64,000 nucleotides of DNA from an uncultured Vampirovibrio sp. Lineage in GTDB: Bacteria > Cyanobacteriota > Vampirovibrionia > Gastranaerophilales > Gastranaerophilaceae. Positions within the stretch are counted from its first letter, which is position 1. Every line of letters begins with the position of its first letter. Positions 3,656 to 34,885 of this stretch are shown one piece after another. The notes below the pieces were generated by a model that saw nothing but the letters and a program-made list of their open reading frames with translations, searched no databases and was not told the origin of the DNA. The translations under genes and the position numbers were made by a program. The stretch spans positions 72,104 through 136,103 of the forward strand of contig CAJTXT010000005.1 in NCBI GenBank assembly GCA_910583875.1. Direction: 5' to 3'.

Positions 3656-4405
3656 TTATACAATATTCCCCGATTTTTGTATTGTTTGTTTTACAGATTC
3701 ATATATCACAATACTTGCAGCATTGGCAACATTTAAAGAATCAAAATTCGTTAACATAGGAATTTTTATTTTATAATCGGCTTTCTTTAAAATTGTTGTT
3801 GAAATACCTTCCTTCTCGGAGCCCATAACTATTGCAAAATTCATATCACAATAATCAATGTCATAATAATTATCTTTAGCATCTAAATCCGTTGCAATTA
3901 TCCAGAAGTTGTTATCCTTTAGTTTATCTATTATAGAAGATAAGCTATTAACCATAATTAAATCAATGTGATTAATTGCGCCTGCTGATGATTTTTCAAC
4001 CGTAGCATTAATTACAGAATTTCTTCTAGAAGGAAATATTATAGCATCAAAACCAGCGCACACTGCAGTTCTTATTATTGAACCCATGTTATGAGGATCT
4101 TCTACCCCATCTGTTATAATTACTTTTTTGTATTCTTTCTTTTTTTTAAGAAAATCCTCAAACTCTACATAACTTATCGGTGAAACGTATGCTATAACAC
4201 CTTGATGAGAATATTCTTTATACTTAAAAAACTTTTCTTTTGGAATAAATTGAAAAACTATACCCTTATTTTTTGCTATTTCAATTATTTGAGAAATCTT
4301 TGGATTCTCCCTCATACCCTTCATTAAGAGTATTTTACTTACACTTCTTGTGCCTTCTTGCAAGAGTTCAAGTACATTATTTCTGCCAAAAACAAAATCT
4401 TCCAT
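3656..4405 (-). CDS. rlmB: SpoU/TrmH-family 23S rRNA 2'-O-methyltransferase (RlmB-like)
   Basis: 249 aa. 'FGRNNVLELL', 'DGVEDPHNMGSIIRTA', 'VMGSEKEGIS' and 'IPMLTNFDSLNVANAASIVIYE'. Confidence 0.8.
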   Translation of the reverse strand: MEDFVFGRNNVLELLQEGTRSVSKILLMKGMRENPKISQIIEIAKNKGIVFQFIPKEKFFKYKEYSHQGVIAYVSPISYVEFEDFLKKKKEYKKVIITDGVEDPHNMGSIIRTAVCAGFDAIIFPSRRNSVINATVEKSSAGAINHIDLIMVNSLSSIIDKLKDNNFWIIATDLDAKDNYYDIDYCDMNFAIVMGSEKEGISTTILKKADYKIKIPMLTNFDSLNVANAASIVIYESVKQTIQKSGNIV

Positions 4406-4569
4406 TAATTTTAACCATTTTCTACATTACAAACTTCCCTTATTATACATTAAATGATATAGTAAAAGAAAGAAATTCATTCATTAAGTTTCTTTTCAAA
4501 AATGAATTTATAAAATATTATTGTATAATATTGTTATACTGTGTGAAAAAAGTAGGTTAATATAAAGAT

Positions 4570-19167: not shown

Positions 19168-19264
19168 AAAGATAAAAGCAGAAAAATTTCATTTTCGGCA
19201 CCTGTGTTTTCGCGATTCCTAAAAACAATGGTGCCAAAAATAAAATTTTTCTGCTTTTATCTTT
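19168..19264 (-). repeat. family-2 repeat
   Basis: Arms match at 33/35 positions. Core 'cacctgtgttttcgcgattcctaaaaacaatggtg'. Ends 4 nt before the stop codon of the 19268 gene. Confidence 0.88.
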
Positions 19265-19267
19265 GAA

Positions 19268-20566
19268 CTATTTCAAAAATTCTAAAGGCGGAACCCCTTC
19301 AAATTCTTCATATTCTTCTACCGATACAGTATTAGGAGCTTGATATTCATCTTCTAAACTTTTTTCAAGCAATTCTGCTTGTTTATTTAGAAGTTTATTA
19401 TTAGCACAAGCAATATCACGCCCAATTGATTTAGATGCAAGATATACAGCCTGTTCAGAAGGTGCACCTTCAGCTGCAACTGTTTCTTGAACATCATAAC
19501 TTGCCCAATCATCAGGTAATTCATCAACTGTAGTATAACCTTGCTCGTCATCAAGTCTTTTATCAACTTCATTTTCAAGAATATCTGTTACATATTCTTT
19601 TTGAGATTCAAAATGACAAGGAAGAACAAGCTCTGTACCAATAATCTCTTCAGGATCACGTTTTTCATATTTTTTAAGCATTTCTGCTGCTACTTGTAAA
19701 TGACCTATTTCCATTTGCATAAATTCTTCCCAGATAAGTTTCAATTTATCATCAACTTCATCTTTATAACAATTATAATAATTACAAACTTCCGTAAATT
19801 CATGTAATAACCATTTTTCAAGCATTGTTTCAGTAGGGTCAACAAGCGTTTCGTACATTGTTACGTGTTCCTCTTCAACGTCACATATTTCAGCATATAA
19901 ACGTTTTAAATCTGTATTGCCATACATAAAACCGTGCTCTGCATAATAATTATGTGTTTGTTGTTCACCCGAAATCAAAGTTAAAATATTTACTTTTGTA
20001 ATTGGTGAAGTTTTATCTTTATCGTATGGCTTACGAATTCTTAAAGCATTACAATTATGATGATATTGAGTAGGTCTTCCTATAACAACATCTGTCATTA
20101 GCTGAAGAATTTCATTAGGGTCTGTTTCTTCAATCATATATGCAAATTGAGAATATCTGTATAAATGGTCAAAGTCTTCTAATAAACCAAAATTAAAAGT
20201 TTCTTTTACATATTCATCAGGTTCATTTTGTGCAAGCCAAGCTGTTAAATCTACCGCAACCTGCTCATAGCCTAATGTTGTATCAAGTACAGTTTGATTA
20301 GGCGGAGTCAACCAATTAACGGTTGTTTGCTGCATATCTTCTATTCTTCTTGTTTTTACTAAAAGTTTATTTAATTCAGTATCTGCAGATTTACGAACAA
20401 AACAATGTTTAAATGTCCAGGCATTTGTTTCAATACCATTCATTAAAATTTGTCTTGTTCTTGTATAACAATCAGCTTCCATTCTATTATAAGGTCTGCG
20501 CACAATATCATGCCAGGTTCTTATTTGTTTATCTATCGGAATACCTTTTTCTTTTAATACGTTCAT
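19268..20566 (-). CDS. hypothetical protein with ferritin-like ExxH pairs
   Basis: 432 aa. 'DVEEEHVTMYE' and 'MQMEIGHLQVAAE' lie about 45 aa apart. Assignment is weak. Confidence 0.35.
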   Translation of the reverse strand: MNVLKEKGIPIDKQIRTWHDIVRRPYNRMEADCYTRTRQILMNGIETNAWTFKHCFVRKSADTELNKLLVKTRRIEDMQQTTVNWLTPPNQTVLDTTLGYEQVAVDLTAWLAQNEPDEYVKETFNFGLLEDFDHLYRYSQFAYMIEETDPNEILQLMTDVVIGRPTQYHHNCNALRIRKPYDKDKTSPITKVNILTLISGEQQTHNYYAEHGFMYGNTDLKRLYAEICDVEEEHVTMYETLVDPTETMLEKWLLHEFTEVCNYYNCYKDEVDDKLKLIWEEFMQMEIGHLQVAAEMLKKYEKRDPEEIIGTELVLPCHFESQKEYVTDILENEVDKRLDDEQGYTTVDELPDDWASYDVQETVAAEGAPSEQAVYLASKSIGRDIACANNKLLNKQAELLEKSLEDEYQAPNTVSVEEYEEFEGVPPLEFLK

Positions 20567-20642
20567 TATTTTTCCTTTCTAAAATTATAGGAATGCAATT
20601 GTGTATAAAAATAAAATTAGAATCACGCTCAAAAATAATTAG

Positions 20643-20841
20643 GAAATTATATAGAAATTTACACTAAATCTGCTTAAAAAATAGTAATAATGTCATTCCG
20701 AACTTGTTTGACTACTTTTTCCAAAATCTTTGATTTTGTGAAAAATGTCTGGTTTTCCACGGAATCTTACAATTTGTAAGACCCTGAAACAAGTTCAGGG
20801 TGACAACTTTAGCTATTTTAGTGTAAAGTTGCACATAATTT
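20643..20841. mobile_element. family-1 MITE, full length, carrying a nested 51-nt insertion
   Basis: Ends 'gaaattatatagaaatttacactaaa' and 'tttagtgtaaagttgcacataatttc' are inverted. Two hairpins (ttccg and ccctg variants). Confidence 0.85.
20710..20760 (+). mobile_element. nested 51-nt mini-element (family 3)
   Basis: 'gactactttttccaaaatctttgattttgtgaaaaatgtctggttttccac' splits the hairpin 'ccgaacttgttt|cggaat'. Confidence 0.85.
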
Positions 20842-20892
20842 CAATTTTTCAAGGAATTATAATTTTATATTTATACATTTGGTCATTCCTTT

Positions 20893-22224
20893 CTATCGAC
20901 AAAGCGCATGAGCAAAAAGTTCTGCAACTTTGTGGTTATAAAATCTGCCGTCATCTTTTGCAAAAAGATTTTCCCAATGACTTTCAGGACTTCCATCCAT
21001 TGAATATGAAGGATTTGTCATCATAATATGATGCGTATTTGTATCATACCTAAGCGGGAAAATATCATTAGTCTGCATAAAACTTGGCAGCTTATCACTT
21101 GCATTATAATATGCAAACAGAGCTGTATTTATTCTATGAAGCCTTTGTTCATAACTGATACCGCCCTCGTAGTTATCGTTTTCAATTTCAACACCAGGAG
21201 CGTAAACTCTGTTGTATTTTAATTTTTCAGATAATTCTTTTACAGCAAAAAAATCATCGCCTGTAATAAAATCAGTACCTGCATTTAACCCCATTAAACG
21301 ATAGCGTTCAAAATCATCTGAACTTTTTTCACCGACAAAACTTATCGTAGTTTTTCCGCTTCTTGCTCTAATTTCATTTAAAATATACTGCATCTGAGGA
21401 TATTCAGGCAAATCACCCACACCTGTATAATTTTCACAATCATACCCGCCAATATGTTTAGCTGAATCTATAAACATAGATTCAAAGCCTAAATTCATTA
21501 GTTTTACACTTTCATTAATATAGAGTTCAACATGTTCAGGGTTACACCAGCTAAATGTTTCATCACTACCATTAGGATATGCAACTTTTATCTGATCGGC
21601 AGAAATTACAGTTCTAAACCCTGTTTTTATACCACGAAAATGTGCTAAATCATTAAATGCCTGTATTTGTTCCTCAGGTGTAATTTTATCTGCAATGTTA
21701 TATGAAATAACATTATCACTATAACCCGCATTAAGCTTTATTCCGTAAATAGAGTTTTCTTCAAATGGACCTTTATTATAGCTATCACCAAATATATTGG
21801 GAAAAATCTGAGAAATAATAACGCAATTTGCCCAGCTTTTTGCAGATGGCGGAATAGCAGGAAGAAGTTTAATACAGCTAAGCATGCCGCAGCATGTTCT
21901 ATCAAAATTCATCTGCGCAATTGCGCGATTATTTAATTCTATATAATTTGCTAATCTTCCCCAATTATCACCATAATTCGGGCTCAAAATCTCATCGGGA
22001 AACTTTTCATAGAATATGCCGCCTTCAGATAAAGTCGCAATAGATTCAACAGCTTGCTTAATACTGCGTGAAAGTAATTCAGCTGGAACTATATTTGCTA
22101 CCCATTTTTTTGAAGCATAACATCCAAGCGAATGATAAGTTCTTTCTTTTGTCCAATTATTTTCTTTCAATTGAATATCTTCGCTAAGTGATTTTAATAA
22201 TTTATTTACATAATTTTCTTTCAT
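20893..22224 (-). CDS. hypothetical protein, possibly a GH13-like TIM-barrel glycosidase
   Basis: 443 aa. 'GFESMFIDSAKHI' resembles alpha-amylase region II (GFRxDxxKH) and 'FMQTNDI' resembles region IV. Assignment is weak. Confidence 0.35.
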   Translation of the reverse strand: MKENYVNKLLKSLSEDIQLKENNWTKERTYHSLGCYASKKWVANIVPAELLSRSIKQAVESIATLSEGGIFYEKFPDEILSPNYGDNWGRLANYIELNNRAIAQMNFDRTCCGMLSCIKLLPAIPPSAKSWANCVIISQIFPNIFGDSYNKGPFEENSIYGIKLNAGYSDNVISYNIADKITPEEQIQAFNDLAHFRGIKTGFRTVISADQIKVAYPNGSDETFSWCNPEHVELYINESVKLMNLGFESMFIDSAKHIGGYDCENYTGVGDLPEYPQMQYILNEIRARSGKTTISFVGEKSSDDFERYRLMGLNAGTDFITGDDFFAVKELSEKLKYNRVYAPGVEIENDNYEGGISYEQRLHRINTALFAYYNASDKLPSFMQTNDIFPLRYDTNTHHIMMTNPSYSMDGSPESHWENLFAKDDGRFYNHKVAELFAHALCR

Positions 22225-22361
22225 AATAAATAAATAATTTATCTACCAAAGAAAGATTTCATTAGACTTGTAGATATTTTTTCGGGTAATTAGTTTTTTT
22301 ATAAAAATAATTGGGGTCTTGTAATTTTTTTTTGAGCATATAATAATATAAATAGCTTTAT

Positions 22362-22435
22362 GGCAAGGTAGCTCAGTTGGCGAGAGCGCACGGCTCATAC
22401 CCGTGAGGTCGAGAGTTCGAATCTCTCCCTTGCTA
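22362..22435 (+). tRNA. tRNA with CAT anticodon (Met, or Ile2 if lysidinylated)
   Basis: Cloverleaf folded by hand. Acceptor ggcaagg/ccttgct (G1:U72), D arm gctc/gagc, anticodon stem cacgg/ccgtg with loop ctCATac, T arm gagag-ttcgaat-ctctc, discriminator A. Confidence 0.85.
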
Positions 22436-22467
22436 TTTTTATTTGCTTTATTTTGGGCTAATTCGGG

Positions 22468-22586
22468 ACAGTTTGCGAAATTTGCTCCAAAGTATTGATT
22501 TTATTGAGTTTTAATTTTAAAAAATAGGCAAGAATAAAATTCTTAAACTGGACCAAAACGGACTTTTTTTACCAGTTTAGGAATTC
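22468..22586. promoter_or_regulatory. three copies of the 12-nt motif AATTCnnAAACT / AGTTTnnGAATT
   Basis: 22468-22483 'acagtttgcgaaattt'. 22538-22551 and 22572-22585 form a 14-bp inverted repeat (13/14 match) with a 20-nt spacer. On the minus strand that repeat is followed by a T-rich run, so it may be the operon terminator. Confidence 0.45.
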
Positions 22587-22860
22587 AAGATAGAAAACCC
22601 AGTAAAGAAGATTTTAAATTAGCAGTTGATATTTTAGAAGAAATTTTGAATTACAATGAGCCGTACGAGCAAAAGAAATTCCAAAACAAGCGAAATTGCG
22701 AAATATGCAAAGAGATTATAGAAAAGCGTTATAGATAAAGTTGAAAATTTAATTTTTTTATACCAGTGCTATTTTGAGATTAGAGATATTTATGATAAAT
22801 AAGTATCAAATTGCAAATTAAATTCAATAAGAAGCCTGTTGAACACTTTTTGAACACTAT

Positions 22861-24573
22861 TCATTCGCTAGCTTGTTGATTTGGAAGTTCTGGATTTAAA
22901 TCAATGCCATCAACCCAAGATAATTTTACATTATAACCAAATCCTTTTAAATCCGTAATTATTTTGTCCAAGGCTAACTTACTTATAAAAGTAAGTTTAT
23001 TCTCTCCTTTATCATTAATTATTAAGTATCTAATAGTATAATCTTGATGTGCATTCAAAGAATTGTTTAATCTATGCTTAGGATTATCAAGTTTATCATT
23101 TACACTCGGGACAAAGACTTCTTTCATTGAGGCAAATGCTCTTGCCGAAACATAACCTTGATTAAACAAATGACTCAGATTTGCAGCTTTAGTACCTATT
23201 TTAGAATGAATAAATTCTTTTTTATTAGGTTCGAATATATCACAAATTTCCATTTTATCGCCATCAATGGTAATTTGTTTATTTATTTGATCTAACAATT
23301 CTCCATTCAATTGATTACAAAAGTTTCTATTAAAAATCCTTTCTTTATCAATATGTTTAGTTTCATTTATTTTTTCATTAAGTATTTCTTGAGTAGTATT
23401 ATGTTTTACAGTTTCATCTACTTCTATTGTTTCGCCAATGTCTTCAATATTTTTATTTATTCGTTCATATTTATCAGTAGATAAGCCATACCATACTGCA
23501 TTAGACAGAATATAAACCTGATTATCAAGTTTAAGTTCTCCATATAAACATTTTAATACAGACCATTCTTTGTATTTATTACCTTCTTCATTTAACAAAA
23601 TTATTTTATCTTGATTTAAATTAAGATTTTCTGGAGTTTCTCTTAAGCCAAGATAATCATTTAAAGATAATTTTTCAAATGGTTCAGAACTACGAGAATT
23701 TTCTGCAAGTTTATATTTAATGCTCGAAACAAGAGTTGAATCATAATCAATTTCAGGTTCAAATAAAAAGAAATTTGAGTCTTCCTCTGTAAGTTTATCT
23801 TTTAATATTTCGTTTAATTCTTTCTGTTTTTGGCTCGATAACGGTCTAAGACCTTTAAAAAACTTATTTACAATATCACTATTTATTTGCACATTTTTAT
23901 ATAAATCTAATAATAAACTTAATCTATCATCTAAATAATTCCAACAAGGTATTTCTGATTCTTTAAATCTCATTTTTATATTTAATGGTCCGTATTTGCC
24001 TATAACGGAACTTATTGTTGATGAATCCGCAACTGCATTTAAATGTCTAACTATATCATTATCTTCTAATTCTGCATTAAAAATTTCGTTTGATAGTTCT
24101 TGTGCATTTTGAAATTCTGTATTTCTAGGATTGCTTGATATGTTGCGAGTTCCTGCTCGTCTGATTTTTGCACCTTGATCAATCAAAGCCATTGCTGTAT
24201 ATATCCCAAACGTATCCTCTATTTTGTCTTTTGTTATGTTATGTCTGCCTTGTCCAAAATTTATTGCAAATAGGTATTTTTGATTATTATGTACAATTTG
24301 TTTTATTACAGTAAGTCCTTCGGCTGCGGTATTTGCAAATTTATCTTTAATGGTATCTTTTAAGATTTGCTCATCAAATTCTATTACCCAAGCTGGTTTT
24401 TGTCCTGCGCGTCCATTCTTATATAGAAAATAATTATCATTTTCTTCGCCACCTAAAATAACATTACTTTCTTCATAGTTTTCAATGTAATTATCTCTGC
24501 TATTAAGATTACAGTCTGCTTTTAGTAACATAATGTTTAAGTTAACTGTTTTTACTTTTTCTTCTTCCGACAC
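22861..24573 (-). CDS. 570-aa orphan, possibly a TIGR04141/DUF6119-like 'sporadically distributed' protein
   Basis: GTG start behind GGGAG. N-terminal 'LNIMLLKAD'. C-terminal 'ICDIFEPNKKEFIHSKIGTKAANLSHLFNQG' resembles a nuclease motif. The family name is from memory and was not searched. Confidence 0.35.
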   Translation of the reverse strand: MSEEEKVKTVNLNIMLLKADCNLNSRDNYIENYEESNVILGGEENDNYFLYKNGRAGQKPAWVIEFDEQILKDTIKDKFANTAAEGLTVIKQIVHNNQKYLFAINFGQGRHNITKDKIEDTFGIYTAMALIDQGAKIRRAGTRNISSNPRNTEFQNAQELSNEIFNAELEDNDIVRHLNAVADSSTISSVIGKYGPLNIKMRFKESEIPCWNYLDDRLSLLLDLYKNVQINSDIVNKFFKGLRPLSSQKQKELNEILKDKLTEEDSNFFLFEPEIDYDSTLVSSIKYKLAENSRSSEPFEKLSLNDYLGLRETPENLNLNQDKIILLNEEGNKYKEWSVLKCLYGELKLDNQVYILSNAVWYGLSTDKYERINKNIEDIGETIEVDETVKHNTTQEILNEKINETKHIDKERIFNRNFCNQLNGELLDQINKQITIDGDKMEICDIFEPNKKEFIHSKIGTKAANLSHLFNQGYVSARAFASMKEVFVPSVNDKLDNPKHRLNNSLNAHQDYTIRYLIINDKGENKLTFISKLALDKIITDLKGFGYNVKLSWVDGIDLNPELPNQQASE

Positions 24574-24737
24574 AACTCACTCCCTAAATTTGTAATTGAT
24601 ATTATCATCTTACATATAAAAGTAGAGATTTTTAGAAAAATTAATTATTTTTTAAGGTTTGATAAATCTAACATTTTAGATTATTTACTTTAATTGCATT
24701 TAATGTTGTTATTTTGTCGTATAAACCTTATGTTAAT

Positions 24738-25814
24738 TTATTTTATGTAATCTAAATATTCAAGCAATTTTTTCTGCTCAAGATATTTCATGTAGCTTTC
24801 CATGTATTCGTAATCAGGTTCACCAGTATCAGTAACTGGTAAAGTTAGGATTTCTTTTTTTAATCTAGTATCGCTTCTTTTGTAATTGAAACTATACTTA
24901 CCCCGAACTCTATCTGCAATTGTAGTAATAAACATACCAGAATATTTGTTTAGTTTATTGTTATAACCAACTGTAATATCTGATGTAGCAATAAAATCTT
25001 CGGATTTATATATTGAATACCCCATTGAGCCCTCTCCGTTGCGAATAAATGCAATACAGTTCCCTTTTTGGATTAGATATTCATTTCCAGCCTTTTCTAC
25101 AAAGCAAAGAACTCCATTATTCCTATTAGTTGCACCTAGATAAGGTATTCCTTGTTCATGTACTTGTTCTAAGTGATTCAAGCCTTTACTTTTGCCTGCC
25201 ACTAATACTGGGAATATAGCTTTTATTCTAAAATCACACCAACTTTTATTATCAATAATGTTCTTTTTTAACTTCTTTAATTGAGTTAGCTTAAGAACTT
25301 TGTATTGTTCTTTAAGTTTAATTTCACGCTCTTTTATATATTCTTCCATAAATTCGTAATCAGGCTCACCTTTTGAATTTATAGGTAGCATTATCTTGGC
25401 TCTTTTTAATCTGTCACTATTAAATAAATAGCCATAAGAAGCCTTGTTAAGTGCGGTATTTTCTATAGTTTTACATAAAAATAATGCAACATATTTATTT
25501 AAATCTTTTTTATATAAAAGATTTATAGAAGCACCACTAAATCCTCTACCAACAAAGTTATATTCGTGAAAAAAAGCTTTACCCTTAATCGGATCAATAG
25601 AAATAGCATTTTTTGAACTTATGCATCTTTCATTCGCTTTTACAAAAGATATTAGTCCATTATTCAATGTAGAAGTTGAAATATACGGTATATTTCCATC
25701 AATATAATTTTCTATAGGTTTCCCGTACACATTTTTGATTTCAAACAATTTGCAAATCTGAAAATCTTTCCATTCTCTGTCTTTTAAAGATTTAACCATT
25801 TTTACCCTCATCAA
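24738..25814 (-). CDS. R-M specificity subunit (HsdS-like, BcgI-B-like) with two target-recognition domains
   Basis: 358 aa. Internal duplication: 'PINSKGEPDYEFMEEYIKEREIKLKEQ' and 'PVTDTGEPDYEYMESYMKYLEQKKL' end the two halves. Confidence 0.8.
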   Translation of the reverse strand: MMRVKMVKSLKDREWKDFQICKLFEIKNVYGKPIENYIDGNIPYISTSTLNNGLISFVKANERCISSKNAISIDPIKGKAFFHEYNFVGRGFSGASINLLYKKDLNKYVALFLCKTIENTALNKASYGYLFNSDRLKRAKIMLPINSKGEPDYEFMEEYIKEREIKLKEQYKVLKLTQLKKLKKNIIDNKSWCDFRIKAIFPVLVAGKSKGLNHLEQVHEQGIPYLGATNRNNGVLCFVEKAGNEYLIQKGNCIAFIRNGEGSMGYSIYKSEDFIATSDITVGYNNKLNKYSGMFITTIADRVRGKYSFNYKRSDTRLKKEILTLPVTDTGEPDYEYMESYMKYLEQKKLLEYLDYIK

Positions 25815-27714
25815 ATAAATAGGCTCTGCCTTGTGCTATCATTGAGAACTCAAATGTTAAATAATCAGCAATTGTTTTGTTAAAATCTTTTTCTGTTGGT
25901 ATTTCGTCATTAAAATAATAAAAAGAGTGTAACCATTCGTCAGTTGGTTCAATAGTAGATTTAACACAGAATTTTGTAGGAGCTTCAATTCTATTAAACC
26001 ATACATCTAACAAATGTTGTTTCTTGTCTTTAGCATATTCTGTTTCGACTAAGCCAATGTGTGGAGATACTTTGAAACCATCGTCCTTGAAATCAATAAA
26101 TTTACATTCTTTATCTTTAGGATGTGGTTTATGTGCTGTAAATATAGCTATACATGGATTAGTTCCCACCCCATAAAAAGTATCGCCACTTAAAGTAATT
26201 ACCCCTTCTAATGTGTGGTGCTTTAGAATGTTTTCCTTATAGTTTTGTTCATCTTTTGTTTTGCCAGTTAAAGATGATTGAGGAATAATAACCACAACCT
26301 TACCATCTTCTGCCAAGGAATCTAATAAATGTTCGACAAAACTAATTTCATATAATGACGGATTCGCTTTAGAACCTTGACTATAAGGAGGGTTCATCAT
26401 ACCAACATTGGCACCTTTAAGTTGCAATTCAGCTTCATTGCATCTTAAAAAGTCTTCATCTATTAAATTGCTTTTGCCATCACCACGTATAATCATATTT
26501 GTTGTAGCAATAGTAAACATATATGGTTGAAGTTCTATACCATGAAGCTGATTTTTACGGATACTCTCTTTTTGTGTTTCGGTTTTGGCTTTCTTTAACA
26601 TATTATGCATTGCAGCAATTAAGAATCCCGCCGTACCACAGCAAGGGTCAAAAACAATATCATCAGGTTTTAAGTCAACAAGATCACAAAATAATTGAGT
26701 TATATGTTTAGGTGTTAAAATTATTCCTAATGTTTGCCCATCACCTCCTGAATAACTCATAAATTCACCATAAAATCTTCCAAGATAATCTTCTGCAGTT
26801 TTTGTATATTTTATGGTTTTGTAAATATTATCATAAATTTGTTCAGCATAGTATTTTAAAGGAGTTTTACCTAAAATTGGGTTAATTTCATTTAAAATCT
26901 TTGTATCTTTAATAACTGCAAATTGAGTTAATAGTTTATCTTTTTTTACAGTAGGTGAAACTTTAGAACGTTGTAAATTTTTATCAATGGCATTATAAAT
27001 TTTATTTCCATCTGTGTCTATATCATCCCCTATAAGTTGTTCAAGATTAAATGACCCTTTTTCAATTTCTCGAAGAGCAAGCAAGATTCCAGAAACAACA
27101 AGAGGCTTCTGTGTATCTTGCAAATTACCATAATTTCTTAAATCCTCATGTAAATTTTTGGCGAATTTAAGAATTTCGGTTGTTTCTTTTTGCAAATCAG
27201 TGTTTTCGCCGAGAATTTCTCTTGTATAATATTCGTCGATATTTTCTTCATTAAATATATAAAATGATTCGACATCTGGCATTATCTTGCAATACTCACG
27301 TTCATTTATAAATAGAGGTGTAATTTTGTGATGTTTTTCATTTCCAGAAACACCAAATGCAATGATCTTTTTATAATTAGTATTATTTATAAGATGTTTT
27401 CCATAAAAGTAAGCACCATTTACTGCGTATTGTCCGACAGATTTAGTATCTGTACTTATTAAATTCTTGTCATCATATTTTACATGTTTTGATAGATCTG
27501 ATTTATCTTCAATGACAAGTATAAAATCTTTCACAACTCCAACATACTCCGGAAAACCAACATTTCCAGTACCTTTCTTTGATGCTGTTTTTAATGCTTC
27601 GTCAATTTCTTTTATTGAACAGCCTTGTGGGTCTAAACAGATTTTTGCTTCTTTTAATAAATCATAAACCCATAAATCAGTTTTGACTTCCTTTTTTGCC
27701 ATATCATATACCAT
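25792..27714 (-). CDS. fused endonuclease and N6-adenine methyltransferase subunit (BcgI-A-like, Type IIB)
   Basis: 640 aa. N-terminal PD-(D/E)xK-like 'GFPEY-x12-VIEDK'. SAM motif 'VFDPCCGTAGFL'. Catalytic 'MNPPYSQ'. Overlaps the S-like gene by 23 nt. Confidence 0.7.
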   Translation of the reverse strand: MVYDMAKKEVKTDLWVYDLLKEAKICLDPQGCSIKEIDEALKTASKKGTGNVGFPEYVGVVKDFILVIEDKSDLSKHVKYDDKNLISTDTKSVGQYAVNGAYFYGKHLINNTNYKKIIAFGVSGNEKHHKITPLFINEREYCKIMPDVESFYIFNEENIDEYYTREILGENTDLQKETTEILKFAKNLHEDLRNYGNLQDTQKPLVVSGILLALREIEKGSFNLEQLIGDDIDTDGNKIYNAIDKNLQRSKVSPTVKKDKLLTQFAVIKDTKILNEINPILGKTPLKYYAEQIYDNIYKTIKYTKTAEDYLGRFYGEFMSYSGGDGQTLGIILTPKHITQLFCDLVDLKPDDIVFDPCCGTAGFLIAAMHNMLKKAKTETQKESIRKNQLHGIELQPYMFTIATTNMIIRGDGKSNLIDEDFLRCNEAELQLKGANVGMMNPPYSQGSKANPSLYEISFVEHLLDSLAEDGKVVVIIPQSSLTGKTKDEQNYKENILKHHTLEGVITLSGDTFYGVGTNPCIAIFTAHKPHPKDKECKFIDFKDDGFKVSPHIGLVETEYAKDKKQHLLDVWFNRIEAPTKFCVKSTIEPTDEWLHSFYYFNDEIPTEKDFNKTIADYLTFEFSMIAQGRAYLFDEGKNG

Positions 27715-29014
27715 CCTTTAAAATTTCATCAAACTTGCTTGCCATGTACAATGGAATATTATAAAGCCCATTGTTTATCTCAAAATTCGCAAGTGAAGTT
27801 CTTATGCTTATCTCGGGTTCAAATTTTTCTCGATAAACCTTAAGACTTTTTGCTTGTAAATTTGTATTAGCTTTCACTTCAACAGGAATAACATACCCGT
27901 CAGTTTGAATAATAAAATCAATCTCAGCATTTCCAGACTTACTTATCCAATAAGCAATTTCCATATCTTCAATAGTTTTTAATTGTTGCAGTACGTATTG
28001 TTCTGCTAAAGCACCGTTAAATTCTGTAAAAATTTTATCTCCTTCAATCAAAGTTCTTGCTGGAAGCTTACTTAATGCAGATAATAAACCTACGTCTAAA
28101 ATAAATAATTTAAATGCTTTGGTGTCTTCATATGCTTTTAATGGTAAAGCAGGTTTTGTAATACGGTTTATTTTATAAACCAGTCCACAATTAATAAGCC
28201 AAGATAAAGCTTCCTCAAACTCATCTGCCCTTGCTCCGGATTTTATTTTTTTATAAACAAACTTCTTACTTTCTTGAGTTAATTGACTTGGAATTGACTC
28301 CCATAGTAAATCAAGTTTCAACTTGCCAGTAGAAGATATATGTTTTGAGAAATCTCTTGTATATGCATCTAAAATATTTTCTTGAACCTTACGAACTTTT
28401 TGAAAATCATTTGTTTCAATAAATGTACTAACCACTTCTGGCATTCCGCCAACGTAATAATATTTTTTTAACCATTCAATATACTTTTCTTTAAAAACTT
28501 TTATATTAGGAGATTTAGGACTTTTTAGTAATTCTATAAAATTACTTTCACCAATGGCATCTAAAAATTCTAAAAATGATAGAGGATATAAATCAAGAAA
28601 ATCTACTTTTCCAACCGGAAAAGAAACATTCTCATGAATAGCAACTCCCAATAAACTGCCAGCTGCAATAATATTATATTCTGGAGTGTTTTCATAAAAA
28701 TATTTAAGAGCCGTTAAAGCTTTTGGGCATTCTTGAATTTCATCAAGTATTATTAGTGTTTTTTGGGCATCAATTTTAGAATGGGTTAACTCCAAACCTT
28801 CAATAATTCTTTTTGTATCAAAATCTATTGAAAACAGATCACACATTAACTTGTCTAATTCAAAGTTTATATAAATAACCTTTTTGTATTCAGTTTTGCC
28901 AAACTCTTTCATTAACCAAGTTTTGCCAACTTGACGAGCCCCTCTGATTATCAATGGTTTTCGTTTTGAATTATTCTTCCATTCTATGAGCTTATTTATT
29001 GCATATCGTTTCAT
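27704..29014 (-). CDS. AAA+ ATPase (AAA_14/DUF4143 type) with a C-terminal PD-(D/E)xK-like motif
   Basis: Likely start 'MKRYAINKLIEW' (the ORF track extends to 29065). Walker A 'GARQVGKTW', Walker B 'LIILDEIQ'. C-terminal 'AEIDFIIQTDGYVIPVEVKA'. Confidence 0.75.
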   Translation of the reverse strand: MKRYAINKLIEWKNNSKRKPLIIRGARQVGKTWLMKEFGKTEYKKVIYINFELDKLMCDLFSIDFDTKRIIEGLELTHSKIDAQKTLIILDEIQECPKALTALKYFYENTPEYNIIAAGSLLGVAIHENVSFPVGKVDFLDLYPLSFLEFLDAIGESNFIELLKSPKSPNIKVFKEKYIEWLKKYYYVGGMPEVVSTFIETNDFQKVRKVQENILDAYTRDFSKHISSTGKLKLDLLWESIPSQLTQESKKFVYKKIKSGARADEFEEALSWLINCGLVYKINRITKPALPLKAYEDTKAFKLFILDVGLLSALSKLPARTLIEGDKIFTEFNGALAEQYVLQQLKTIEDMEIAYWISKSGNAEIDFIIQTDGYVIPVEVKANTNLQAKSLKVYREKFEPEISIRTSLANFEINNGLYNIPLYMASKFDEILKDGI

Positions 29015-29203
29015 ATAATCTCTCTCAGTATATAACTTAACAAAAATTAATAATAAATAACTCATCCGAAAATACGATTTTACATTTTTTTAAACGACTT
29101 TTGAGAAATTTATAGCATTATATCAAATGACTTTGAGTGGTAATATTACATTTTTATTAACTACTTTTTCTAAAAATAAAGTTACTTAAAAATAACGTTG
29201 CCC

Positions 29204-29251
29204 GAAATTCTCAAACTATCTGTGAAAAATTCCTAAACTGTTTGTGAATTT
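29204..29251. promoter_or_regulatory. three more copies of the AATTCnnAAACT motif, including a 23-nt near-palindrome
   Basis: 'gaaattctcaaactatc' (29204-29220) and 'aattcctaaac-t-gtttgtgaatt' (29228-29250). Located between the WYL gene stop and the ATPase start. Confidence 0.45.
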
Positions 29252-29292
29252 ACACAATTGAAAGGTTATAGATAATTTAAAATGGTTTAAAT

Positions 29293-30255
29293 TTAATAAT
29301 TTTTTAAATTACTTTCCATATATTGTTTATACTCAGCTTGCAGTGATTTTGGTGCAATAATTTTGCAGCCGCTGCCCCATTTGAATACATGCCAAATGAT
29401 TTCTAAGCTTCCGCTTGCTCTAAAAGTTACAGTATAACTACCGTCCGTATTATATTTACCCCTTTGTGTCGGATGGAAATTGAATTGACTCGCTTCCTGT
29501 GCTAGTTCAGGTGAAAACAAAAGTTCAACATCAAGAACTTCACCGTGATACACACCAAAAGACTGGTTTGTATATTTTTGCAAGTTAAAATCACCTTTAT
29601 CAAATGTTTTATCGGTAAGTTTTAATCCTTCAAATTTATGCAACAAATAGTTATAAATTCCATTACCTTTGGCTTTTTCCCTTGCAACAAGATAAATCTT
29701 TTCTCCGTAAATCATTCCAAGAGGTTCAATTAATCGAATTTTATCGTTATAAATTCCATTAACCATTTTTGAATGTTGAACAGCTTCCCGAATAATTTCC
29801 AGCGTTTCTATACTAATCTTATATTGCGGCATTTGGCGGACTGCATAACCTTCTGTTTGCATATACAGTTCAATATTTGTTTCAAGAGAATTTGCATTTT
29901 TACGGTTAAATGTCTTAATTTTTTCAACTGTTTTGGCTAATTCTGCTTTCATTTCTTTATTCGTTGTTCTGCGTTGGCATTGCTCAATATTTGCTATCTC
30001 TTTAGGAGAAAAAGAAATCAAATTTGAAATTGAATAGTTTATAAATCCCCAATGTTTTTGAGAATCGTTTGTTTCAATTTCATCAACAGACGGAAAAATA
30101 CAAGTTAAACTATCTCTCATTCGTTCTGCAGTCCTTCGTGAAACATTATATCGTTCTGCAATTTCAGAAATCGTTACCCCTTGAATTTTTGATGACATAA
30201 AAATTGCCAAATCTAAAATATCTGAAATTCGTGAATATCTTGGTTTATCTTGCAT
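29293..30255 (-). CDS. HTH plus WYL-domain transcriptional regulator (BrxR/CapW-like architecture)
   Basis: 320 aa. wHTH 'VTISEIAERYNVSRRTAERMRDSL'. WYL-like 'YNDKIRLIEPLGMIYGEKIYLVAREKAKGNGIYNYLLHKFEGLKL'. Confidence 0.7.
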   Translation of the reverse strand: MQDKPRYSRISDILDLAIFMSSKIQGVTISEIAERYNVSRRTAERMRDSLTCIFPSVDEIETNDSQKHWGFINYSISNLISFSPKEIANIEQCQRRTTNKEMKAELAKTVEKIKTFNRKNANSLETNIELYMQTEGYAVRQMPQYKISIETLEIIREAVQHSKMVNGIYNDKIRLIEPLGMIYGEKIYLVAREKAKGNGIYNYLLHKFEGLKLTDKTFDKGDFNLQKYTNQSFGVYHGEVLDVELLFSPELAQEASQFNFHPTQRGKYNTDGSYTVTFRASGSLEIIWHVFKWGSGCKIIAPKSLQAEYKQYMESNLKNY

Positions 30256-30344
30256 AATTATTCCCCTTGAAATTATTATAGCACAATATGTCCGTATTTG
30301 TCGCAGATATACGTTAAAATGATAACAAAATAAGGAGATAATAT

Positions 30345-30932
30345 ATGGATAAAATTAAATTATTAATCAAAAATAGAGAACAAGATACATTCGCAATACA
30401 TTATGCCTGTGAATGTTTTTATAATGGCGGTGCTATTGCACCTTCTATTTGCTCAATCAGTATTGTAAATATGAGAACAAACAATCTGCATACATTTGCA
30501 TTGCATAATTATATTTTACAAGGGAAATCATTGATTGATAGTGAAAAACAATTATTGTTAGATTTTGTTGATTTTTACAAATCATTGAACAATCCAATAT
30601 TTATTCACTGGGCAATGGATAGTTTGCAATACGGATTTAAAGCTATTTTTGCCAGAGCTGAAAACTTTGGAATATATGATTTTGATTTATCAAAAATGCA
30701 AGATATAAATCTAAAAAATTATATTGATTTATCACTTATAAGAAGTTTAGAAATGAATAATTGCAAGAGAATTTCTGTTCTAAACGGCAAAGATGAGGCA
30801 ATAAGTTTTGATAAACGTGACTACAATTTAGTCAAATTATCGACAGAAGGTAAAGTTTTAGGAATATTAGAATTATTTGAAAAATATCTCAATAATGATT
30901 TAGTTGAATTAGATGATGATGTAATCTACTAA
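30345..30932 (+). CDS. hypothetical protein, cassette gene 1
   Basis: 195 aa, SD site AAGGAGA. No confident domain. An RNase-H-like strand/helix pattern is only a guess. Confidence 0.5.
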   Translation: MDKIKLLIKNREQDTFAIHYACECFYNGGAIAPSICSISIVNMRTNNLHTFALHNYILQGKSLIDSEKQLLLDFVDFYKSLNNPIFIHWAMDSLQYGFKAIFARAENFGIYDFDLSKMQDINLKNYIDLSLIRSLEMNNCKRISVLNGKDEAISFDKRDYNLVKLSTEGKVLGILELFEKYLNNDLVELDDDVIY

Positions 30933-30940
30933 AGGTTAAA

Positions 30941-31861
30941 ATGACATATCTGAATATAATAAATAAAATTAATAAAGAATACGGAGTTGAACTCAATGAA
31001 GACGATATCAAAAAAATAGTTTTTGGTATACAAAATAAAATGTGTTATTTTTTAACTAATCCTAATGATTTGAGTAATTCAAGAATTGCAGTAATTGTTA
31101 AATATGGACAAAATCTTATTAAACTTATCACTTATCATGATGGTTCGATAGTTTGTGTTTTACCATGTAATCATTCACAAAATGCGGATATGTTAAATAT
31201 TCCTGATATTAAAAAAGAAATTGAGTTATTAAATAAAATTGAACTAAAGAATTTAAGTCATATTTGTGCATATTGCAATAAGGCTTTGAAACCGGAAGAA
31301 AAAACAATAGATCATATCATACCAAAATCAGCTAAAGGGAAAAATATTGTTGATAATTATGTTATTTGTTGCTCAGAATGTAATACAAAAAAAGCAAATT
31401 ATGATATTAATTCTTATTTAGAAGCTAATGATAAAATTGCTTATTGTTTTGATAATTATTTACAAATGATTGATAATCAAAGAAAAAACAAGTTTTATTC
31501 AAAATTAATTAAACAACATATCAAAGAACATATTTTCTCAAAGGCAAAAAAATACCAATTATATCGAAATGAGCGAATTAATCAAATACAAGATATAGAA
31601 TATAAAATAAAAGGTAGTTCTATTTCTTTTAAAATCAATAAAACACAAGCAAAAATTTTAGATTTTTATCTTGAAAATAAAGATTTTACTGAATATAAAT
31701 TATTGGCAAAACAATTAAAAATTAGTAAAAGCGAATTACAAACACATATTACTCATATCAATTGTTTAACAGGAATTTTTATACTTAAAGAAGTGAGTAA
31801 AAATGGTATCAGATTAAATGGGTTATATAAAGATAAATTAGAAATTATTAAACAAGATTAA
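30941..31861 (+). CDS. HNH endonuclease-domain protein with a probable C-terminal HTH, cassette gene 2
   Basis: 'CAYCNKALKPEEKTIDHIIPKSAKGKNIVDNYVICCSECNTKKAN'. C-terminal 'AKILDFYLENKDFTEYKLLAKQLKISKSELQTHI'. Confidence 0.75.
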   Translation: MTYLNIINKINKEYGVELNEDDIKKIVFGIQNKMCYFLTNPNDLSNSRIAVIVKYGQNLIKLITYHDGSIVCVLPCNHSQNADMLNIPDIKKEIELLNKIELKNLSHICAYCNKALKPEEKTIDHIIPKSAKGKNIVDNYVICCSECNTKKANYDINSYLEANDKIAYCFDNYLQMIDNQRKNKFYSKLIKQHIKEHIFSKAKKYQLYRNERINQIQDIEYKIKGSSISFKINKTQAKILDFYLENKDFTEYKLLAKQLKISKSELQTHITHINCLTGIFILKEVSKNGIRLNGLYKDKLEIIKQD

Positions 31862-31904
31862 ACAATTTTACATTAAAAACGTTATATAATTCAAAGGAGT
31901 TTAA

Positions 31905-33083
31905 ATGAAAAAGATAAGTTTATTGATGTTACTTTTAATCTTTAGTACAATCTCTGCGTGTGCCTATTTTCAAGTTAATGAATTTAAACTGGTACAAAAT
32001 AATAATACAAAAATCTGTCAAGCATTTGAAGATGGTTATGTTTGTGGAAATGAAGAACCTGTTTATTATGAAAATTTTAAAGAAACTTTTTTGTCACTAA
32101 AAATTAATTATTGGAATATGGACGGGGAAAAATGTTTACGTTTAAAGCAAGGATATAAATGTTCTAATGAAACTCCTGTTTTTTGGTTTAAAGGCAAAAA
32201 AGGAATATTAATAAAAGATAATGAAGGTAATGAGCAAATATGTTCATTGAAACGCGATGGCAGTTATGAATGTCCTCAAAATAATGAATTGTATAGTATG
32301 CTTTTACCTTATGGAAATTGGGAATTTATAAGAGAAGAAGGCTTTTGGAAGGTTAAATACACACAAGGTTGTATAGGCTACAAAAACGGTTATATTTGCC
32401 CTAGTGAAGAACCAAGATTTATCAAAGATTTTAGAAGCAGTTTTGATTTTTCCATCTCAGAACAAATGTCAAATGATGTGAAAGTAAAAAATGGAATACC
32501 TCTAGATAAAAATTGTTATGAATTGAGTTTGGGTTATTATTGTACTGGAGAAATGCCTGTAATAAATAAGGTATACAAAATTGATGAACATCGCGGTATT
32601 TTTGTATCTGATAAAAACAACCCAGGTAATAAAAAAATATGTAAACATTTTACGTTTGATGAGTACATTGATAGCGGATATAAATGCAAAGGTGAAGAAC
32701 CGGTTATAACCAAAAGACCTACCACAATAAAATATAACGGCAAATCAAAGTTTCATGGTAAAGTTGAAGAAATGCGCAAAGGTATAATTGCAAATTATGG
32801 GTTAGTTACTTGTAATCAATATAAAGACGGTTATGTTTATTGTCCCGGTGAAGAAAATAATCCTAAAAAGTATGCTATGACTTATGATTTAACGCCGGAA
32901 GAATTTAGGAAAGCAGGAAAGGAAGCCGAACGCAACAAAACGGCAACGGAACGGTTAAAAGAGAGCCTCAATAAAGGTCGTATTTATATGCGTGATAAGA
33001 ATGGAAAAAGAACCGAATATAAAATTAATCCTTATACAATCGATAGGAATTCTTTGGAACTGATACCGCGTTGGTCGCATTAA
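31905..33083 (+). CDS. lipoprotein with six Cys-containing 'C..x..GY.C..E.PV' repeats, cassette gene 3
   Basis: Lipobox 'STISAC'. Repeats EDGYVCGNEEPV, KQGYKCSNETPV, KNGYICPSEEPR, SLGYYCTGEMPV, DSGYKCKGEEPV, KDGYVYCPGEEN. Confidence 0.7.
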   Translation: MKKISLLMLLLIFSTISACAYFQVNEFKLVQNNNTKICQAFEDGYVCGNEEPVYYENFKETFLSLKINYWNMDGEKCLRLKQGYKCSNETPVFWFKGKKGILIKDNEGNEQICSLKRDGSYECPQNNELYSMLLPYGNWEFIREEGFWKVKYTQGCIGYKNGYICPSEEPRFIKDFRSSFDFSISEQMSNDVKVKNGIPLDKNCYELSLGYYCTGEMPVINKVYKIDEHRGIFVSDKNNPGNKKICKHFTFDEYIDSGYKCKGEEPVITKRPTTIKYNGKSKFHGKVEEMRKGIIANYGLVTCNQYKDGYVYCPGEENNPKKYAMTYDLTPEEFRKAGKEAERNKTATERLKESLNKGRIYMRDKNGKRTEYKINPYTIDRNSLELIPRWSH

Positions 33084-33116
33084 TGAATTGTATATGATTA
33101 ATTAAAAGGAATTTAA

Positions 33117-33506
33117 ATGAAAAAGAATCGTCTATCTAAAGCAAAAAATCAAACTTATCATTTCAAAAAAAGATGTGATGAAAGATTAGGTGTACAAATT
33201 GATAGAAAAGCAATTCAAAGACGAATTAATGAACAAAAATTTGACGAGCACTTTTATTTTTTAAATAAACAATCTAATAGGGTTTCCAGATATCGTTACA
33301 GATTTCAAGATAAATGGTATATCATTCCTTACGACAGAAATACTCATAAAGTTATAACAATATTTGAAGACAATAAACAAGATATTTTTACAGAAACTAA
33401 AACTGATATTATTACTAAAAACACTAAAAAGAATCCATTCAACTGGTTTCAAAAACTTATTCAATGTTTTAAGGATATAAGTACATCAATTCATAAACAA
33501 TGTTAA
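33117..33506 (+). CDS. small basic protein, possibly a DUF4258/BECR-fold toxin, cassette gene 4
   Basis: 129 aa. 'YHFKKRCDERLGV' follows an H-x3-R-x2-ER pattern, then beta-rich 'WYIIPYDRNTHKVITIF'. Confidence 0.35.
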   Translation: MKKNRLSKAKNQTYHFKKRCDERLGVQIDRKAIQRRINEQKFDEHFYFLNKQSNRVSRYRYRFQDKWYIIPYDRNTHKVITIFEDNKQDIFTETKTDIITKNTKKNPFNWFQKLIQCFKDISTSIHKQC

Positions 33507-33691
33507 TAGTATTATTTTGAAATAAATAAAAACAGCAATAATACAGGGTTAATGAAATCTGAAGGTACAACAATTATTCTGCACAAGTATAAAGATATAT
33601 GCATATTAAACAATGAAAAAATAATATGTAAAGGAATCAATAGGGTTGACGTATATAAATATGAAATTAATTAAAATTATGAGGTTTTAAA

Positions 33692-34885
33692 ATGAAAAAA
33701 GATGATGAATGGCAAGCAAAATATTTTTATACATCTACAGAACTTAACAATTTTATTGAACCGTTGAAATCAAAATTGCTTGGTAAATCTATAGATAAGA
33801 TAATGATTACTGGACATATTTATACAAGTTGCGGATATGATGACAAAGAAAATTATTGTGTTAAATATTCCTGTGATGAAAAATGGGTTATAGAAGACAA
33901 CAACGTTGAAAAACAAATCCAATCATTACCAACTCATAAAGTTTCTCTTTCTTTAGATGATCCATTGATTTTATGTTTTGGCAATATTCATTTTGAAATA
34001 AATTACTGTGAATTTAGTAATGCACAAATTGGCATAAATACATTAAATTCTATGAGTAATGCTGATTGGCAAGATGTTAGTGATTATTTTGTCAAGAACA
34101 TTATTGGAAAGAAATTATTAGATATAAAAATAAATCAAACTTGTATACCAAATAAATACACTTCTCACTACCGAAAAAATGGTGAAAAAATGTATGATGA
34201 AATAGTTTTTGTATTTGAAAATGGCTATCAATTAGAAATATCTTCGGATATAGATTATATGTCTTTAGCTGAAAGAATTATATGGCAAGAACAGCAAGAT
34301 TTAGCACAAAGAGATTGGGATTGTTATTATGATTCAAAGCAATATTTGGATGATAATGAAAAAACATTCAAAGAGCTAATTGCTGAATCAATTCCGATTA
34401 ATGGTAATAATATGCGAATAACCGCTAATGATGAATATTCCACTGGATTTCTTGATTACTATTTTGAAATAAATAATAATGGTATTATTAGCAAATGTTA
34501 TTATGGGTTTGCTATTAACAATATGAATTTTCTTTGGAATTTCGTAGAAGCTATGGTAATGTCAAAAAATGATTGTTATTTGTGTTGTGAAGAAGAAGGG
34601 CCAGAAACATATTTTTATATACAAAATCTAGATGATGATAAAATTAGATTTATACATATTAGTAATAGAATACAAGACGAAGGTTTAGTGACTGAAGACT
34701 ACAAAGTTCGTCAAGATTTTATAACAAGCAAATATAATTTTATAAAACAATTTTATACTTGCCTAATACAACCGATTAGACATTTTAATAAAACTAATAT
34801 GAGCAAGGTATGCTTGGATGAATACAATGAATTTTATAAAAATTCAATAATTGTAAAAAAATATTTGGAACTTTATAATTGTTAA
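33692..34885 (+). CDS. hypothetical protein, cassette gene 5
   Basis: 397 aa, SD site GAGG. No recognisable motif. Confidence 0.5.
   Translation: MKKDDEWQAKYFYTSTELNNFIEPLKSKLLGKSIDKIMITGHIYTSCGYDDKENYCVKYSCDEKWVIEDNNVEKQIQSLPTHKVSLSLDDPLILCFGNIHFEINYCEFSNAQIGINTLNSMSNADWQDVSDYFVKNIIGKKLLDIKINQTCIPNKYTSHYRKNGEKMYDEIVFVFENGYQLEISSDIDYMSLAERIIWQEQQDLAQRDWDCYYDSKQYLDDNEKTFKELIAESIPINGNNMRITANDEYSTGFLDYYFEINNNGIISKCYYGFAINNMNFLWNFVEAMVMSKNDCYLCCEEEGPETYFYIQNLDDDKIRFIHISNRIQDEGLVTEDYKVRQDFITSKYNFIKQFYTCLIQPIRHFNKTNMSKVCLDEYNEFYKNSIIVKKYLELYNC

Follow-up and report, generated by a model that had tools for sequence, protein, structure and literature searches.

The A/S complex of BcgI, a Type IIB restriction-modification (R-M) enzyme, methylates a bipartite site and cuts unmodified DNA on both sides of that site without ATP; BcgI itself needs no ATPase, and no ATPase gene is coupled to its own. 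WYL regulators in which a winged helix-turn-helix (wHTH) domain is followed by WYL and WCX domains head defence operons. Transposons of the Tn7/Tn5053-like kind have a canonical layout in which one end is followed by cargo and by the transposition genes, the other end lying beside the attachment site. The gene PDC-S01 owes its status as a phage-defence candidate (PDC) to "guilt by embedding", having been found inside BREX, DISARM and Type I R-M systems, and most PDCs are awaiting validation (bioRxiv 10.1101/2024.01.29.577857). The present analysis concerns positions 22861-30255 of a 64,000-nt stretch (hereafter the window) of contig CAJTXT010000005.1 from a metagenome-assembled genome of an uncultured Vampirovibrio sp., whose relatives in this study are Gastranaerophilales/Melainabacteria from gut samples. 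Five genes on the minus strand encode there a WYL regulator, a PDC-S01 ATPase, the A and S subunits of a BcgI-like R-M system and a 570-aa protein of the DUF6119 family. The locus is probably a mosaic defence island of four separable modules, namely the R-M core, the ATPase, DUF6119 and the mobile block/WYL flank. The item put forward as new is DUF6119, an uncatalogued, widespread, R-M-embedded candidate nuclease, with the ATPase on its exchangeable, apparently transposon-borne cassettes in second place.

Comparison was based on 90 related R-M loci, whose A homologues are 69-97% identical to that of the window (individual loci are cited by an L number). The A-S pair is the sole constant feature of these loci and often stands by itself; an S match was found in 86 of the 90, and several of the remaining contigs stop at A or S. 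A-S pairs of 90-92% identity occur without the other modules, between lon and a permease gene or beside transposase genes. A WYL homologue was found in none of the 90 loci and in none of six other contexts of the ATPase, of the 55 metagenome loci that extend 1.5 kb or more upstream of A only 2 have the ATPase gene immediately before it, and DUF6119 was found in a single one of the 90 (L132, 25% identical, just 3' of S). All five components together were found only on the source strain's own contigs, and elsewhere they occur singly or in other combinations. The initial annotation had read the five genes as one operon and one system under the WYL regulator, and these counts speak against it.

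The five open reading frames (ORFs) of that annotation are present and co-directional, and encode the WYL regulator (29293-30255), the ATPase (27704-29017), the A subunit (25792-27702), the S (or B) subunit (24738-25799) and the DUF6119 protein (22861-24573). For the ATPase the most likely start is 29017 (MKRYAINKL), which agrees with its 436-aa homologues. Two overlaps had been reported between neighbouring genes. That at 27704-27714 is an artefact of the longest-ORF rule: taking the conserved MAKKEV start shared by homologues (ATG at 27702), a 1-nt spacer separates the ATPase stop from the A start, which is still a tight coupling. That at 25792-25814 exists, but its true extent, from the ATG chosen by gene callers, is 8 bp (25792-25799). 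The tight spacing claimed for the operon holds for the ATPase-A-S unit, which recurs in relatives, but two gaps had gone unmentioned, one of 275 bp between the WYL stop and the likely ATPase start and one of 164 bp between S and the DUF6119 gene. No terminator-like site was found in either gap, an Rfam scan of positions 22000-30500 matched nothing except a tRNA, and a promoter scan (44 sites, versus 47.7 expected from shuffled sequences) was uninformative in this AT-rich DNA and neutral on the operon.

The A subunit (about 636 aa) gave an N6_Mtase match and a match to REase_MTase_IIG, the PADLOC model that includes the BcgI class (1.3e-170), spanning 3-631 of 637 positions. It combines within one chain an N-terminal endonuclease motif (PE at 55-56 and EDK at 69-71, ORF numbering) and an N6-adenine methyltransferase (DPCCGTAGF at 356, NPPY at 441), these motifs being invariant in 13 homologues, and NCBI lists a homologue of 97% identity under the name "restriction enzyme BgcI subunit alpha". 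The S subunit (about 353 aa) is encoded by a separate gene beside A and has two target-recognition domains, with two Methylase_S stretches and a PADLOC Specificity_II match (1.6e-37). Judged from these domains and motifs, A and S are a complete BcgI-like Type IIB R-M system, as initially annotated; by analogy with BcgI, the A/S complex would be expected to methylate a bipartite site and, where the site is unmodified, to cleave the DNA to either side, independently of ATP.

In the closest relative, L072, the ATPase is 98% and A 97% identical to those of the window, S just 39%. The slot that DUF6119 has in the window is filled in L072 (10007-12257) by a DUF4917 gene (438 aa) and a DUF4357 gene (293 aa), the second of which is also found 3' of an unrelated A/S cassette with a 690-aa A in L162-164 and is a recurrent follower of R-M genes. 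One or two extra partial specificity-gene fragments lie right after S in L125-L134, L144, L153, L154 and L156, and suggest exchangeable half-S cassettes and specificity switching; no such fragment was found in the window. Related A/S pairs were also seen amid variable defence neighbourhoods (L076, 10325-14441; L075, 1-1496), one of them with a Pycsar-like pair (Guanylate_cyc and PycTM), DUF3800 and an integrase, another with HEPN_LA2681 and Fic.

The ATPase matched AAA_14 (1.6e-30), DUF4143 (1.1e-36) and, weakly, PDDEXK_4 (0.0019) in Pfam, and the PADLOC model PDC-S01 over its full length (1.2e-181, residues 17-447). The motifs first noted in it were all recovered, that is Walker A (GARQVGKTW at 42), Walker B (ILDEIQ at 106), IDF at 382 and EVK at 396; the last two are separated by 11 residues and not 13. 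Its C-terminal end carries a PD-(D/E)xK-like motif, and DUF4143 is listed among the PD-(D/E)xK families (PMC3424549).

The partners of this ATPase vary widely. The 98%-identical ATPase of L072 is tightly coupled to the 97%-identical A, a 91%-identical ATPase is separated by a 1-nt gap from a 690-aa A that is 24% identical, over the methyltransferase region only, and the gene of an 85%-identical ATPase shares 4 bp with that of a 651-aa A of 29% identity. ATPase genes of 77-82% identity are solitary next to an integrase or amid housekeeping genes, or lie by a convergent HpaII R-M system, and plasmid-borne ones of about 50% identity head a Type III R-M system, overlap a KptA gene or stand alone. 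A case of the KptA overlap is L186 (Fusobacterium animalis plasmid pSB029A, 5004-6882), where a 47%-identical ATPase gene shares 8 bp with a KptA/Tpt1 RNA 2'-phosphotransferase gene; no R-M system was found with this pair. Near-identical ATPases are found at the head of unrelated A/S pairs and also on their own, so the ATPase most likely acts autonomously. As far as gene contexts tell, it is an autonomous gene habitually found at R-M systems, which in the closest clade forms the conserved head of exchangeable BcgI-like cassettes.

The close packing of stop and start codons in four independent cassette types (4 bp of overlap, or 1 nt between them), and the coupling to BcgI-like A/S in all three contexts where the ATPase is at least 85% identical, could also be read as signs of a third subunit or cofactor of the BcgI-like enzyme, which would then be an ATP-dependent three-component Type IIB variant using the ATPase for loading, translocation or cleavage licensing. 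This is unlikely, since A partners of just 24-29% identity accompany ATPases of 85-98% identity, which is hard to square with a specific protein interface, and since A+S pairs of 90-92% identity exist without the ATPase, ATPases of 77-82% identity exist without any A/S pair, and BcgI needs no ATPase. The autonomous ATPase would be expressed together with A and S as a tightly coupled unit of transcription and translation, under its own conserved leader, and would act independently of them; it is likely to be an NTP-gated nuclease and a second defence layer, not a restriction-enzyme subunit.

The leader of the ATPase gene (29018-29204, minus strand) is conserved. About 240 bp upstream of the start show 68-76% nucleotide identity among the window, L072 and L162-164, and the genes further upstream differ. 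Repeats of about 32-33 bp ending in AAAAATG occur in this leader; L170 has 2.9 copies at 95% identity (4367-4458), the repeats of the window (about 33 bp) are degenerate, and the AAAAATG columns are conserved in six loci. The repeats may be an operator or an iteron array.

Upstream of the ATPase leader, homology to relatives starts abruptly at TGTAAAT(T/C)(C/T)ACAAACAGTTTAGGAAT, at window position 29254 and 38 bp beyond the WYL stop. This TGT terminus (TGTAAATTCACAAACAGTTTAGGAAT...) and two copies of a 12-nt motif make up a putative element end at 29205-29254 (minus strand). Exact copies of the motif, CAGTTT[AG]NGAA[AT], occur in the 64-kb window only at 29229, 22469 (plus strand), 22539 (minus) and 22573 (plus). 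The copy at 29229 has a partner with one mismatch 22 bp away, and the other three are clustered at 22469-22584, on both strands, between the end of the DUF6119 gene and a tRNA-Met gene (CAT anticodon; 22361-22436, plus strand), a probable attachment landmark. The cluster is probably the other element end, abutting the tRNA.

Positions 22579-22856 are 86% identical in nucleotides to L072 12276-12544, the segment that follows the L072 cargo, and the homology ends in a remnant, the last 52 codons, of a 136-aa gene (22580-22735, plus strand; 85% identity by tblastn). In L072, TniB/AAA_22-like genes and Mu-type DDE transposase genes come after the 136-aa gene; tblastn searches of the window with L072 and L075 proteins found no transposase gene, only the remnant. 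The order of one end, cargo, remnant, motif cluster and tRNA 3' end matches that expected of a Tn7/Tn5053-like element from which the transposition genes have been deleted. We propose that the ATPase-A-S-DUF6119 block was the cargo of such a transposon inserted just downstream of tRNA-Met, that the transposon later lost its transposition genes, and that the WYL regulator belongs to the flank, the end of its gene having faced the tRNA before the insertion.

Two other interpretations of these borders were tried and rejected. An integrase-type island would be expected to show a direct repeat of the tRNA 3' end, and no duplicated segment was found elsewhere in the window. The motif pair was also considered as an operator of the ATPase promoter; a similar pair with 22-bp spacing occurs in L074-L079 downstream of S, inverted and without an ATPase. 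The true element boundary of L074-L079 lies about 180 bp further out, so that little weight is put on this comparison.

Since the homology and element boundary falls 38 bp past the WYL stop and no WYL gene was found in related loci, the WYL gene is placed outside the block. The protein has the wHTH-WYL-WCX architecture of BrxR and CapW, which bears out the wHTH and WYL domains first ascribed to it (WCX 2.6e-10, PADLOC WYL 6.5e-23; WYL 9.6e-4, below the cut-off, and weak HTH_23/HTH_11 matches in Pfam). Its best promoter-like site, GCGACA-18-TATAAT with a TG (within 30275-30310, minus strand), is overlapped by an imperfect palindrome, ATATCTGCG-N7-CGGACATAT (30286-30310), that is unique in the window. 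The palindrome is a candidate operator in the 89-bp region between the WYL gene and a divergent operon, and no copy of it was found upstream of the ATPase gene (29018-29292).

The divergent operon (30345-34885, plus strand) encodes proteins of 195 aa (phrog_8766, function unknown), 306 aa (HNH, weakly PtuB-like), 392, 129 and 397 aa, the last three without a Pfam, PADLOC or PHROG match. This operon may be the real WYL target and an undescribed defence candidate.

A single five-gene operon under the WYL regulator, in which the Type IIB R-M system would be reinforced by cooperating ATPase-nuclease and 570-aa effector layers, would agree with the shared direction of all the genes, with the lack of a terminator-like site in both gaps, with the confirmed WYL architecture and with the presence of both the ATPase and the DUF6119 families near R-M genes. 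We nevertheless regard it as very improbable: the WYL gene is missing from the related R-M loci and the other ATPase contexts, it lies beyond the TGT terminus and so outside the conserved block, its candidate operator is not repeated before the ATPase gene, and the modules occur apart and are exchanged independently. More probably, the WYL protein would control its own gene and perhaps the divergent HNH operon. A locus that might have linked WYL and DUF6119 (L010) was rejected, the WYL proteins being 35% identical and the L010 gene being the last in an unrelated divergent operon.

The 570-aa protein, initially called an orphan, matches Pfam DUF6119 end to end (residues 12-555 on 1-524 of 524; 3.8e-78) and TIGR04141 (8.6e-67). 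The family comprises 4,757 clusters (at 50% identity) with E <= 1e-3, the best 150 listed being 513-588 aa long. The PADLOC search suggested with the initial annotation matched the other proteins of the locus (PDC-S01, REase_MTase_IIG, Specificity_II and WYL), and PADLOC-DB v2 holds no model for DUF6119. Nothing functional was found in the literature on DUF6119, TIGR04141, PF19614, DUF4143 or COG1373, no paper at all on DUF6119 came to light in these searches, and DUF6119 is absent from the text and the searched supplements of Payne et al. (bioRxiv 10.1101/2024.01.29.577857).

For the search of DUF6119 loci, an alignment of 39 sequences proved too diverse and the search was redone with 23 closer sequences. 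The most frequent neighbours in the resulting 66 loci were HsdS (18), HsdR (14), HsdM (13) and a YgjP/SprT peptidase (6 loci). A Type I gene lies within 5 genes of DUF6119 in 19 of the 66 loci, versus a rough expectation of less than 1% for a background estimated from general knowledge, and in 11 of the 66 DUF6119 is embedded on the same strand between hsdM/S and hsdR. The embedded loci belong to Gastranaerophilales, Thermodesulfovibrio, Alphaproteobacteria, Bacteroidota and others; on the Mameliella plasmid pKUB257 the order is hsdM-hsdS-DUF6119-hsdR-SprT, and both DUF6119 junctions are 4-bp overlaps. The enrichment near R-M genes on which the initial annotation had staked its operon was found for the homologues of both the ATPase and the 570-aa protein, but as independent exchangeable modules and not as one system.

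Closer to the window, 72%-identical DUF6119 homologues have no adjacent BcgI-like pair, some of them lying by other restriction or methylase genes, and in L009 a 74%-identical gene follows another, unrelated A/S pair. A further copy, flanked by two integrase genes, lies in the accessory region of a phage, and another is carried by a plasmid that has no R-M system. The 164-bp leader of the window gene (24574-24737, minus strand; AGGGAG Shine-Dalgarno, GTG start) matches the L009 leader at 80% identity over 77 nt and travels with the gene. Gastranaerophilales homologues (L007/L008, L010, L019, L020) are often near Mu-type transposase (5 loci) and TniB-like genes (3 loci). One transposon family seems to carry DUF6119 in several arrangements. 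We infer that DUF6119 is a separable gene, R-M-associated across phyla, and a candidate embedded defence gene.

The AlphaFold2 model of the DUF6119 protein has a mean confidence (pLDDT) of 87. Invariant residues (E411, E442, D445, H456-x-K458 and Q472) lie in this model on a putative alpha-beta-beta-beta-alpha core: E411 sits in helix 410-422, D445 precedes strand 446-448, H456-x-K458 falls in strand 453-459 and Q472 in helix 463-482. A Foldseek search of the PDB with the full model gave weak matches, the best being the CdiA-CT chains 4zqu_A (E 5e-3, probability 0.97) and 4g6u_A (E 2.2e-2, probability 0.89), which we take to be nuclease toxins of the PD-(D/E)xK fold. These matches belong to the C-terminal domain, because they were lost when residues 1-400 were searched alone. 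The top PDB match of residues 1-400, again weak, was 2owl_A, the RdgC protein of E. coli (E 1.3e-2, probability 0.82, TM-score 0.24-0.30). Among BFVD models, the full model matched a 284-aa phage protein named "Exonuclease" (E 2.6e-5, probability 1.0) and two phage proteins named RdgC; the DUF6119 profile gave no meaningful match to PDB sequences. The model suggests that roughly the first 400 residues are weakly RdgC-like and that the C-terminal domain is PD-(D/E)xK-like, and a DNA-binding domain joined to a nuclease is a reasonable inference from it. In the mosaic that we favour, DUF6119 would be a separately expressed DNA-binding nuclease of the embedded-defence-gene kind.

DUF6119 might instead be an R-M guard in the manner of PrrC, a latent nuclease held by the methyltransferase/specificity complex and freed by a phage anti-restriction protein, with abortive infection as the outcome. 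Its embedding on the same strand between hsdM/S and hsdR in many phyla, with 4-bp overlaps in the annotated example, its place immediately after S in three distinct BcgI-like cassettes (those of the window, L009 and L132) and the resemblance of its C-terminal domain to PD-(D/E)xK toxin nucleases are in line with such a role, and PrrC is cited as the model of Type I-embedded systems (bioRxiv 10.1101/2024.01.29.577857). We hold a guard to be rather improbable all the same, as Type I genes are absent within 5 genes of it in 47 of the 66 loci, the window protein's closest homologues have no BcgI-like pair next to them, copies of the gene also occur on plasmids without R-M and in the accessory region of a phage, and the gene has its own leader.

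A more integrated reading of the whole block, to which we give little credence, would make DUF6119 an R-M-linked immune effector, that is an RdgC-like DNA-binding nuclease tied to Type I and Type IIB methyltransferase/specificity complexes, for example as a guard, and the PDC-S01 ATPase a generic, exchangeable, ATP-dependent partner of BcgI-like enzymes, so that the block would be a three-layer unit without WYL.

Several points weigh against the mosaic of separable modules. The coupling of the ATPase to a BcgI-like A in each of the three contexts of at least 85% identity could mean a functional partnership, and with no terminator-like site in the gaps, read-through from the WYL promoter could extend across the five genes. 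The nuclease and RdgC assignments of DUF6119 come from weak structural matches and conserved residues, without support at the sequence level. The tRNA-side end of the element was placed from motif copies alone; no target-site duplication was found in a by-eye check around the guessed termini, and no empty site was found, exact-protein look-ups with the DUF6119 protein, the WYL protein and a 443-aa neighbour having returned the arrangement of the same strain only.

If the mosaic is correct, the locus is a caution for annotation, as defence genes that are tightly packed and co-directional need not form a system and may be a mosaic, an element end here splitting the regulator from its supposed operon. 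DUF6119/TIGR04141 recurs in Type I and Type IIB R-M operons of many phyla and is a cheap candidate for phage-defence testing. The near-constant PDC-S01 ATPase on unrelated BcgI-like cassettes offers a handle on one of the commonest defence candidates in prokaryotes, and the cassette data show how R-M specificities get swapped in gut Gastranaerophilales.

Beside the island, positions 15720-22224 contain ORFs of 443, 364, 432 and 443 aa for which Pfam, PADLOC and PHROG gave nothing significant (for the 432-aa ORF, a sub-threshold Rubrerythrin match only), and an ORF of 173 aa with a weak DUF2628 match. Further out (12344-15520, minus strand) lies the gene of a 1058-aa SNF2-family helicase with a weak SWIM match and strong PADLOC matches to DpdE (7.3e-174) and ZorD; the genes checked included no further component of Dpd or Zorya.

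Set against the described systems, the locus resembles each of them in part. Tn7/Tn5053-like transposons with defence cargo downstream of tRNA genes share with it the TGT terminus, the short motifs repeated near both putative borders, the junction of the block with the tRNA-Met 3' end and, through L072, a cargo frame that continues into TniB/AAA_22 and Mu-type DDE genes; unlike them, the window has no transposition genes and keeps only the 52-codon remnant of a neighbouring gene. As with BrxR and CapW, the gene of the wHTH-WYL-WCX protein precedes co-directional defence genes, but its linkage to the downstream genes is not conserved, an element end lies between them, and the sole palindrome found lies in the divergent promoter region of the WYL gene itself. 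DUF6119 is similar to PrrC and the other Type I-embedded genes of Payne et al. in its position between hsdM/S and hsdR in 11 of the 66 loci and in often having YgjP/SprT peptidases as co-neighbours; it differs from PrrC in lacking an anticodon-nuclease domain, and the window copy follows a Type IIB, not a Type I, pair. The A subunit of about 636 aa, with an N-terminal PD/E-ExK motif and a gamma-class N6-adenine methyltransferase (NPPY), the separate subunit of about 353 aa with two target-recognition domains, the overlapping genes and the lack of an hsdR gene all correspond to BcgI (A2B-type), whereas the pair of the window and those of its closest relatives are preceded by a translationally coupled ATPase gene. 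This ATPase agrees with PDC-S01 (AAA_14 and DUF4143, COG1373) in its full-length match, its Walker A and B and D...ExK motifs and its location in or next to R-M systems; unlike PDC-S01, which was defined as a single-gene candidate, it heads exchangeable BcgI-like cassettes, with a leader that contains tandem repeats of about 32-33 bp.

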